Shown: positions 60,035 through 63,644 of the stretch, one piece after another | Position numbering within the stretch: position 1 is the first letter of the stretch | Layout: each line of letters begins with the position of its first letter | Assembly (NCBI GenBank): GCA_964016885.1 | Contig: OZ024752.1 | Location: 49,476,001-49,540,000 of the forward strand | Source: Eledone cirrhosa | Taxonomy: Eukaryota | Length of the DNA stretch: 64,000 nucleotides | Direction: 5' to 3' | Program-made: the position numbers and the translations under genes | The notes under the pieces: model-generated | Told to the model about the DNA's origin: nothing | What the model saw: the letters and a program-made list of their open reading frames with translations, nothing else | The model's database searches: none

Positions 60035-60650
60035 TAAAATTATGTAAGAACTGTTTAAAATTATGTAAGAACTATTTAAAATTATGTAAGAACTATTTAA
60101 AATTATGTAAGAACCATTTAAAATTATGTAAGAACCATTTAAAATTATATATGAACCATTTAAAATTATGTAAGAACCATTTAAAATTATGTAGGAGCTA
60201 TTTAAAATTATGTAAGAACTATTTAAAATTATGTAAGAACTATTTAAAACTATGTAAGAACCATTTAAAATTATATAAGAACCATTTAAAATTATATAAG
60301 AACCATTTAAAATTATGTAGGACCTATTTAAAATTATGTAAGAACGATTTAAAATTATGTAAGAACCATTTAAAATTATGTAAGAACTATTTAAAATTAT
60401 GTAAGAACTATTTAAAATTATGTAGGAGCTGTTTAAAATTATGTAAGAACCATTTAAAATTATGTAGGAGCTGTTTAAAATTATGTAAGAACTATTTAAA
60501 TTATGTAAACGATTTAAAATTATGTAAGAACCATTTAAAATTATGTAAACGATTTAAAATTATGTAAGAACCATTTAAAATTAATTAAGAACTGTTTAAA
60601 ATTATGTAAGAACTATTTAAAATTATGTACGAACTGTTTAAAATTATGTG
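60035..60650. repeat. 21-bp minisatellite TTTAAAATTATGTAAGAACCA, ~29 units
   Basis: Period 21; lies within an AT-rich TTAA-element relic. Confidence 0.9.
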
Positions 60651-62489: not shown

Positions 62490-62549
62490 TGTATATCTAT
62501 TAATATTTTATTTCCTTAGTTATTCTAGTCATATTTCAATTTGTCTTAA

Positions 62550-62771
62550 CCCTTTAGCATTTAAACCAGCCATATCCAGCCAGAATTCTCTCACTTCTTT
62601 CTGTTCCAACCAGCCATAATTGACTACTCATACTTATGTTACGGCATTGTTCTCAATATAAATAATATCAAAATCTTATAGATTCGATATTATGTGGGAT
62701 AATTTATGTGAGATAAAGTGTTTACTGTGAAAATATAATAGTAAATATAGAGTAATGTAAACGCTAAAGCA
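62550..62771. mobile_element. piggyBac-type MITE (family M1), right TIR degraded
   Basis: TTAA|CCCTTTAGCATTTAAACC..., internal homology to the other M1 copies. Confidence 0.75.
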
Positions 62772-62859
62772 TTATGATTAAAAAAAAAAAAACCCACACA
62801 AATAAAATGAAATGTATCAATTTAAGTTTATTTTTCATCTGATTTCTACTACTAACACA

Positions 62860-62889
62860 ACTCTTTTCTTTTTCTTCTCTTTTCCATAG
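62860..62889 (+). promoter_or_regulatory. 3' splice acceptor (polypyrimidine tract + AG) of the zinc-finger exon
   Basis: actcttttctttttcttctcttttccatAG, preceded by a CTAAC branch-point-like motif (~62852). Confidence 0.85.
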
Positions 62890-63644
62890 GTGAGCGTCCC
62901 TATATCTGTGGTGCTTGTGGAGTACAGTACAGCCAGAGCCATAGCTTGAAAAGCCACATTACTAATAAGCATGAGGGCAGAATGGGTTACTACATCAAAG
63001 AGAAACGGCACAGAGCTCACAGGGGGATAGGTTATATGACTGCTTCAGTCCCGGGTACCGATATGCCCCTATTCAAGATACCGCCAACTTCAGCTGTTCT
63101 CAATGCGAGTTTAACAGCTGGCCTTGACCTATCAAGTAAATTTTCTGAGCCTCTTAAGGCTTCGTTTCTTGATAATACTCTAAACCAACTGAAATCTAGT
63201 CCACAGCAACATAGTATCCTGAACGGCCACTCTTCACCCCACTGCGCTGATCTCCTGCAGAATCATTGCCCTCCGGGTCCTGGTTTTCCACCAGCACACC
63301 ATCACGGGCCTCTTCAGTACCAGGCTTCCAGGGGAACTGTGAAGATGGAACCTTTAGATAACGGCTCCAACCAAGCCATGGATCTTAGCATACGGTCTTC
63401 ACGTATTGGGCATGGTCATGCTAATGGCCACAACCAGCAGTGTTCCGATGTAAATGGTCTCGACGACTGTAAGCATGCTGAAAAATTAAAAACACTACGT
63501 GGCAATGTAGTCCGTATGCTGGCAATTCTGGTTCCAAACTTGGATTTTGAAGAGAAGGGGATAAGTGCAGAGGGAGATTCTGTGGACGAACTTCTCCAGG
63601 ATGTCATTGAAAGCAATTCCCCTGAAGAGGAAATTCCAGAATAG
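62890..63644 (+). CDS. Terminal coding exon of a C2H2 zinc-finger transcriptional regulator (linker GERPY + finger CGACx12Hx4H, then ~220 aa C-terminal region)
   Basis: Long polypyrimidine tract ending ...tttccatAG at 62888-62889. The phase-1 exon reads (G)GT GAG CGT CCC TAT ATC TGT = G-E-R-P-Y-I-C-G-A-C-GVQYSQSHSLKS-H-ITNK-H, in frame with ORF 62946..63644, stop TAG at 63642-63644. Non-repetitive, GC-richer composition. Confidence 0.93.

Follow-up and report, generated by a model that had tools for sequence, protein, structure and literature searches.

Sequence homology between the C-terminal module of a lophotrochozoan C2H2 zinc-finger protein and the C-termini of MORC proteins

Introduction

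In KRAB zinc-finger proteins, C2H2 fingers are joined to a short silencing-linked module, and SCAN, ZAD and BTB are self-association domains of C2H2 protein families, SCAN being itself a captured domain. Near the end of a 64,000-nucleotide stretch of the genome of the cephalopod Eledone cirrhosa (contig OZ024752.1, positions 49,476,001 to 49,540,000, forward strand; the whole stretch is called the window here), a C2H2 exon closes with a segment that had been likened to the extreme C-termini of MORC3 and MORC4. Here we ask whether this tail is indeed related to MORC proteins, how it came to be joined to zinc fingers, and what a DNA-binding protein might do with it.

Results

The 45 residues at issue are the exact translation of window positions 63483-63617 on the forward strand, as the original prediction had quoted them, and an acidic end of eight residues and the stop codon follow (63618-63644; stop at 63642-63644). 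They lie near the C-terminal end of a 262-codon open frame (62856-63644), in which a polypyrimidine tract and an AG acceptor at 62888-62889 set the exon boundary. The coding portion of this exon, the last of a gene for a three-finger C2H2 protein, runs from 62890 to 63644 on the forward strand. It opens with a TGERP linker and one C2H2 finger, finger 3 (62901-62972; weak in Pfam alone, E 0.03, and placed by orthologue comparison), followed by a family-specific tyrosine-rich stretch up to about 63005 that was likewise recognized from the orthologues. With full-length orthologue P0001 (757 aa) as query, a search of the host genome located fingers 1 and 2 in the preceding exon, 20.5 kb 5' of the window (G000:C12). 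The intron between the finger exons spans about 83.4 kb and is in phase 1 on both sides, its donor (G000:C12:49455500) completing a glycine codon; its downstream 62.9 kb occupy window positions 1-62889 (+). Together the two exons correspond to residues 13-757 of P0001, in which Pfam recognizes three zf-C2H2 stretches (E 3.7e-10), in keeping with tandem C2H2 fingers with a TGERP linker. Six-frame scans of the window detected no further exon of the gene, the remainder being repeat-rich intron.

The acceptor site is mirrored in sequencing data, since contigs from two of four runs (presumed RNA, from related species) start precisely at 62890, and one presumed-RNA contig extends 39 letters past 62890 without any match to the intron. 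No raw RNA reads fell on the exon in about 2% of the reads of one run. Annotated models of three Octopus species and Argonauta share a 90% cluster with the window gene. The intron contains a tandem array of an AT-rich unit of about 21 bases (60040-60650) and, just 5' of the exon, a high-copy dispersed repeat (62545-62760) that reaches very high depth in genomic contigs and is found in RNA reads too.

Across the 18 non-cephalopod-level orthologue rows of alignment A1, mean identity was 82% for the module and 80% for the fingers. By contrast, it was 19% for the intervening linker (63006-63434), which is probably disordered as judged from its composition. The predicted conservation of the module is thus borne out, and such a pattern argues against a chance segment. 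A word-based search with the tail recovered 23 proteins among 72 candidates, 67-100% identical, and every match carrying a species name came from a mollusc. Orthologues were found in bivalves, gastropods, annelids and one brachiopod; the named non-mollusc ones (Lingula, Capitella, Dimorphilus and Owenia) retain the finger arrangement and the tyrosine-rich stretch after finger 3. Recognition helices were identical in all five mollusc proteins compared. From these sequences, the gene is old, single-copy and slowly evolving, and predates the split of the mollusc and annelid phyla.

Querying with the finger region gave 69 proteins, of which the close ones with species names were molluscs; this search barely reached one annelid-type protein (46%), so that carriers in insects or deuterostomes could have escaped it. 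Vertebrate matches to the finger region were generic (30-35% identical) and none had the module. Named records among the matches of these insensitive searches included no insect carrier of the module. A literature search on identity with Drosophila Charlatan gave nothing useful, and no insect record stood among the matches. Automatic database names disagree between species (myoneurin-like, ZEB2-like, ZNF366 and ZNF777). N-terminal to the fingers, residues 246-262 of P0001 (locus L035) form a further conserved motif, RRKxT/SLEDIV/I-RR/SK, at 42% mean identity among mollusc orthologues versus 9% for the N-terminal region; it is possibly a localization signal or a second interaction site. In one gastropod-type record, P0010 (917 aa), HEAT repeats are joined to the zinc-finger protein and finger 3 is missing, which is probably a gene-model fusion.

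To relate the tail to other proteins, we used a profile built solely from 11 mollusc zinc-finger tails, which gave 96 matches at E<=1e-3 among 1.84 billion proteins. Classed by eye and by domain, with MORC assigned by name or cluster mate, they comprised 73 proteins of the zinc-finger class (49 with direct finger evidence), 4 MORC proteins, 15 unnamed MORC-like fragments, 3 proteins with tandem modules and 1 repeat artefact. The MORC matches were an amphioxus protein (E 2.1e-9) whose cluster mate has the GHKL, S5 and CW domains, Saccoglossus MORC3-like (E 2.2e-4), and MORC4 of the Tasmanian devil (E 5.8e-4) and the snapping turtle (E 6.2e-4). The proposed likeness to MORC3/MORC4 C-termini is therefore recovered by a profile of mollusc sequences alone, at E 2e-9 to 6e-4.

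Searches of the 3-Gb host genome pointed in the same direction. The tail found two matches, namely itself and a weak one on contig C23 (E 0.39), which proved to be the end of the last exon of the host MORC3/4-type gene, the tail itself being at G000:C23:2124091-2124249. This gene has its S5 exons 12 kb further upstream in the same orientation and also has its GHKL and CW exons, and octopus proteins annotated as MORC3 share its ending. Conversely, an unnamed MORC4-like tail (E 1.4e-4) and the amphioxus MORC tail (E 2.0e-7) each retrieved the window tail as their sole match. Profile-profile comparison of zinc-finger with MORC tails gave 99.1%. When six MORC tails were made into a profile, all 10 family members scored reached 29-49 bits and none of 10 unrelated C2H2 proteins rose above 0; the MORC rows of both tests had mostly been found first by the zinc-finger profile, which makes these tests not fully independent. 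The window module is 53% identical to that of amphioxus MORC, 51% to marsupial MORC4, 58% to the brachiopod and 56% to one annelid orthologue (38% to another annelid), 38% to host MORC3/4 and 24% to the host MORC2-like protein.

The similarity spans a short, helical stretch, within the host genome the matches to MORC3/4 are weak by themselves (E 0.39 and 0.27), and chance part-matches do occur, for instance in a frame labelled transposase-like from its sequence. One might therefore suppose that two unrelated amphipathic helix pairs came to look alike by chance. However, a profile devoid of any MORC reached E 2e-9 among 1.84 billion proteins, seven MORC-class tails scored 28-57 bits against maxima of 6-11 for shuffled and less than 5 for reversed sequences, the module sits at the extreme C-terminus in all carrier classes, and the conserved residues include non-periodic ones. 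We regard convergence as largely refuted and very improbable. Forward, reverse and profile-profile searches together with the shuffled and reversed controls uphold the resemblance, and by sequence comparison the tail is homologous to the extreme C-terminus of MORC3/4.

No Pfam family matched the 63-residue tail at E<=10. In the PDB, a sequence search with the single tail gave one match, attributable to chance, and the mollusc profile gave none; a broad zinc-finger profile had human MORC2 990-1016 as its sole match, albeit weak (E 1.3). The ESM Atlas returned no usable match for the tail. Two host-genome matches, one on C22 (E 4.9) and one on C5 (E 4.4), were rejected as module copies and ascribed to chance, since on rescoring one stayed below 3 bits and the other reached 10 bits over helix 1 alone, in mid-frame. 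Eleven other matches of one own-genome search (E 0.01-4.7, eight with internal stops) probably reflect a serine run.

The original prediction had treated the module as a MORC3/4 trait. MORC3/4 proteins do carry it, but according to the sequence comparisons it reaches further, to MORC2-type proteins and to a class with tandem copies. A second host MORC gene on C19, with S5 and CW exons and labelled MORC2-like from its sequence, has a module whose helix 1 is separated from the loop by a phase-0 intron of about 16 kb (loci L042 and L044, minus strand); when the two small exons were joined, they scored 29 bits against a shuffle maximum of 6.7. The cephalopod MORC3/4 module (L002:619-1647, on G000:C23) has lost about seven residues of the loop, lies on a long branch of the tree and has no long coiled coil ahead of it. 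The host MORC3/4 protein also carries VIDLT, which looks like a SUMO-binding site.

The third class has two tandem copies of the module and no recognized domain, and its members P0079, P0102 and P0104 are unnamed. Its host gene lies on C4 (L022:5558-7873; G000:C4:243611557-243613872, +) as a 772-codon terminal frame in which the two copies are divergent from each other and are preceded by an arginine-rich stretch with CPCC. Pfam gave no match for this frame, 55 kb contained no upstream exon among frames of at least 60 codons, and the ESM Atlas produced weak, inconsistent leads only. A single-sequence fold of the two-copy P0079 was uninformative (pLDDT 45).

A tree of 108 modules over 52 columns left 40 of 102 inner branches open and did not separate donor from recipient; only the tandem class formed one side (99/87). 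The zinc-finger gene likely captured the module from a MORC3/4-type gene. This direction is suggested by the distribution of carriers, since capture from MORC is simpler when both MORC types have the module and the zinc-finger class is named only in lophotrochozoans.

Several features set the zinc-finger class apart. Nine residues before the conserved LR, 72 of 73 zinc-finger-class proteins have a cysteine, among them 48 of the 49 in which fingers were directly evident, whereas none of the 27 MORC, MORC-like or tandem proteins does. This cysteine is followed two residues later (position -7) by a histidine in 60 of 73, and a further cysteine lies upstream of the Cys-x-His in 64 of 73. In the window gene this lead-in to helix 1 occupies 63441-63476 and is a candidate zinc site; we hypothesize that it forms a zinc clasp between two chains. 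The corresponding site in vertebrate MORC4 is coiled-coil-like by composition. By the same crude proxy, MORC3/4 of cephalopod, amphioxus and hemichordate origin shows no coiled-coil character in the 55 residues leading up to the module, which suggests that the module can stand alone after a linker, as in the window gene.

A loose PxDLS-like motif occurred within 200 residues upstream of the module in 63 of the 68 testable zinc-finger-class members (73 minus five that are too short) versus a shuffle mean of 2.6 (maximum 9) and in 2 of 20 MORC-class proteins, the loose pattern having been written after sight of the sequences. The strict form P-x-D-L-[ST] occurred in 34 of 68 (shuffle mean 1.4). 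Annelid-type members mostly have the canonical P-form, and molluscs usually have a form starting with A; this form resembles a SUMO-binding motif as well, and both points count against the CtBP reading. In the window gene the motif is the non-canonical AMDLS (63375-63389), a candidate site for the co-repressor CtBP; from sequence, it may offer a KRAB-independent route to repression that needs no MORC. Non-canonical ALDLS motifs are reported to bind CtBP (PMC11187106, accessible text). The same linker contains VKME (63339-63350), and similar I/V-K-K-E-P words recur in the linkers of several orthologues. VKME is a motif of the SUMO-attachment type.

AlphaFold2, run on a 28-row alignment of the tail (63453-63641), predicted two main helices at residues 3-26 and 43-55 (mean pLDDT 83.5, pTM 0.61), in the order of a long helix (to about 63530), a turn at VPxL, an acidic loop and a second helix (63579-63617). 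The module is thus predicted to consist of two amphipathic helices, with hydrophobic faces on both in essentially all rows of the zinc-finger and MORC classes, and the polar residues R, N, P, D and N are conserved across classes. Structural comparison gave no clear match: Foldseek with the tail model returned one row (E 9.1), VIA-align gave a best Z of 4.8 with none at Z >=5 among 48,161 chains, and its many bHLH dimerization domains at Z 3.2-4.4 do not exceed what noise gives for a helix pair. Of the module, only the start of helix 1 is covered by the solved MORC2 CC3 chain.

Discussion

Our analysis gives roughly an even chance that the window gene encodes a sequence-specific three-finger repressor, likely dimerizing through its captured MORC module and likely recruiting CtBP. 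In this model, the three fingers would bind specific DNA, the C-terminal module would pair with its counterpart in another copy of the protein, which would make the DNA-bound form a dimer, and the two tails may form a four-helix bundle. Zinc held by the Cys-x-His of two chains might take the place of the coiled coil found ahead of the module in vertebrate MORCs, the zinc-finger protein having no long one, and the PxDLS-like motif upstream would recruit CtBP for repression. Pairing appears likely on indirect grounds, namely the many hydrophobic columns on both helices, which would be much for 45 residues to bury alone, and the class with tandem copies.

The original prediction had also started from the view that the MORC C-terminus mediates dimerization. 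According to the accessible text of the respective reports, deletion of human MORC2 950-1032, which includes the module, abolishes the dimer (PMC6892150), but 901-975 dimerizes without the module (PMC13189624). By NMR, residues 1004-1032 bind the disordered region of MORC2 itself and promote condensates (PMC13189624), and 963-1020 binds DNA in vitro (PMC12216690), again going by the accessible text. With the MORC2 module at about 986-1032, residues 1004-1032 correspond to its loop and second helix. Since 901-975 suffices and 1004-1032 binds a disordered region, the module may be a docking surface rather than a dimer interface, and judging from these analogies its exact role as a dimer interface is not established, even in MORC2.

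A shared docking surface would mean that the module binds a third partner or a disordered region, and that the zinc-finger protein joins MORC complexes or condensates or competes with them. Beyond the MORC2 contact, the polar residues conserved across classes are as expected of a binding surface, and here too the module follows a long linker. However, the conserved columns are mostly hydrophobic helix faces, the linker in the present family is poorly conserved, and the MORC2 contact, described in the accessible text as weak and charge-based (PMC13189624), would hardly maintain the identity seen across molluscs. We consider docking rather unlikely.

Another reading, which we hold as a tentative possibility, is that the module pairs with that of host MORC3/4 or MORC2, so that the fingers bring a chromatin-compacting ATPase to DNA sites, or that the protein acts as a cap that keeps MORC from pairing with itself. 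The module closes both host MORC genes, the hydrophobic pattern is equal in the two classes, and the window module is about as close to amphioxus MORC and marsupial MORC4 as to its own annelid and brachiopod orthologues; at about 50% identity to deuterostome MORCs, it must have stayed MORC-like for very long. The divergent tandem copies of the third class would fit a pairing of unlike copies, and apicomplexan transcription factors working with MORC are known (PMC12221972 and PMC10781626, accessible text). On the other hand, the host MORC3/4 module is the shortened, long-branched form and the MORC2-like one is more distant, and this drift beside an unchanged zinc-finger module argues against a tightly co-evolving pair. 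The Cys-x-His lead-in exclusive to the zinc-finger class also suggests a partner of its own kind. In its fullest form, for which our confidence is similarly low, the module would be a separate pairing domain captured at least twice, through which a lophotrochozoan zinc-finger protein plugs into the C-terminal interface of MORC, with CtBP on the same chain, giving sequence-specific MORC silencing without KRAB or HUSH. Self-pairing and MORC pairing are compatible with each other.

The MORC3/MORC4 C-terminus and MORC2 at about 986-1032 (the end of CC3 plus the 'IBD') share with it a homologous 45-residue module at the chain end, MORC3/4-type tails being 38-53% identical to the window module. The GHKL, S5 and CW domains of the MORC ATPases are absent from the zinc-finger protein (Pfam, full-length P0001 and four relatives), and MORCs differ from it in lacking the Cys-x-His and, for the most part, the PxDLS-like motif. 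Like C2H2 proteins with SCAN, ZAD or BTB, it combines fingers with a small conserved helical module that is likely oligomerizing; unlike them, it has the module at the C-terminus, likely taken from a host chromatin ATPase, belonging to no Pfam family and confined to one gene. Five full-length members gave no Pfam match to KRAB, SCAN, ZAD or BTB at E<=1. With KRAB proteins it shares C2H2 fingers coupled to a short module that likely relates to silencing. In contrast to them, there is no KRAB here, and three fingers with recognition helices invariant among molluscs occur in single copy. ZNF366 and ZEB are C2H2 repressors that recruit CtBP; the likeness to them lies in a PxDLS-like motif in the linker near the fingers, and some of the automatic names point to ZNF366 and ZEB2.

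More distant parallels exist. The ApiAP2-MORC association of Plasmodium and Toxoplasma ties a sequence-specific factor to MORC silencing, but with a different DNA-binding domain and lineage, and the accessible text of its descriptions mentions no MORC-derived module. Flatworm ZFP-1 is a spiralian protein with three C2H2 fingers and little homology outside them (PMC5927768, accessible text); its finger 2 and 3 helices, QRSNLQR and RKDHLxR, differ from those of the window gene.

The original prediction had further set the protein beside the cephalopod C2H2 expansion and the silencing of transposons; neither a link to that expansion nor one to transposon arms races was supported. The host genome has one zinc-finger gene with the module (seven module queries and the full-length protein), in searches that score top candidates only and missed the split MORC2-like copy, so that intron-split or divergent copies could hide; orthologues occur outside cephalopods. 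No other intact multi-finger frame was found when the window was scanned together with 50 kb on its 5' side and 10 kb on its 3' side. In the accessible account of the cephalopod C2H2 expansion, MORC has no occurrence in the main text (PMC12513265). With recognition helices unchanged across molluscs, an arms race with transposons is a poor fit.

In the literature searched, which left most subscription journals outside coverage, we found no non-MORC protein, of the C2H2 type or any other, described as carrying this module, and nothing on lophotrochozoan C2H2 proteins with MORC. The finding delimits, at the end of every MORC type checked, a small domain without a Pfam entry, and this terminal module of MORC is seen to live on in two unrelated protein classes as well. 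This provides a handle on the disputed role of the last 45 residues of MORC2, MORC3 and MORC4, as dimer interface or docking site, and enlarges the set of effector modules in mollusc and annelid C2H2 proteins by a new one. If the protein only pairs with itself, the module would be a SCAN-like captured dimerization domain, still new but less surprising. If it binds MORC, the protein would be, within the reach of our searches, the first transcription factor of an animal that contains its own MORC plug.
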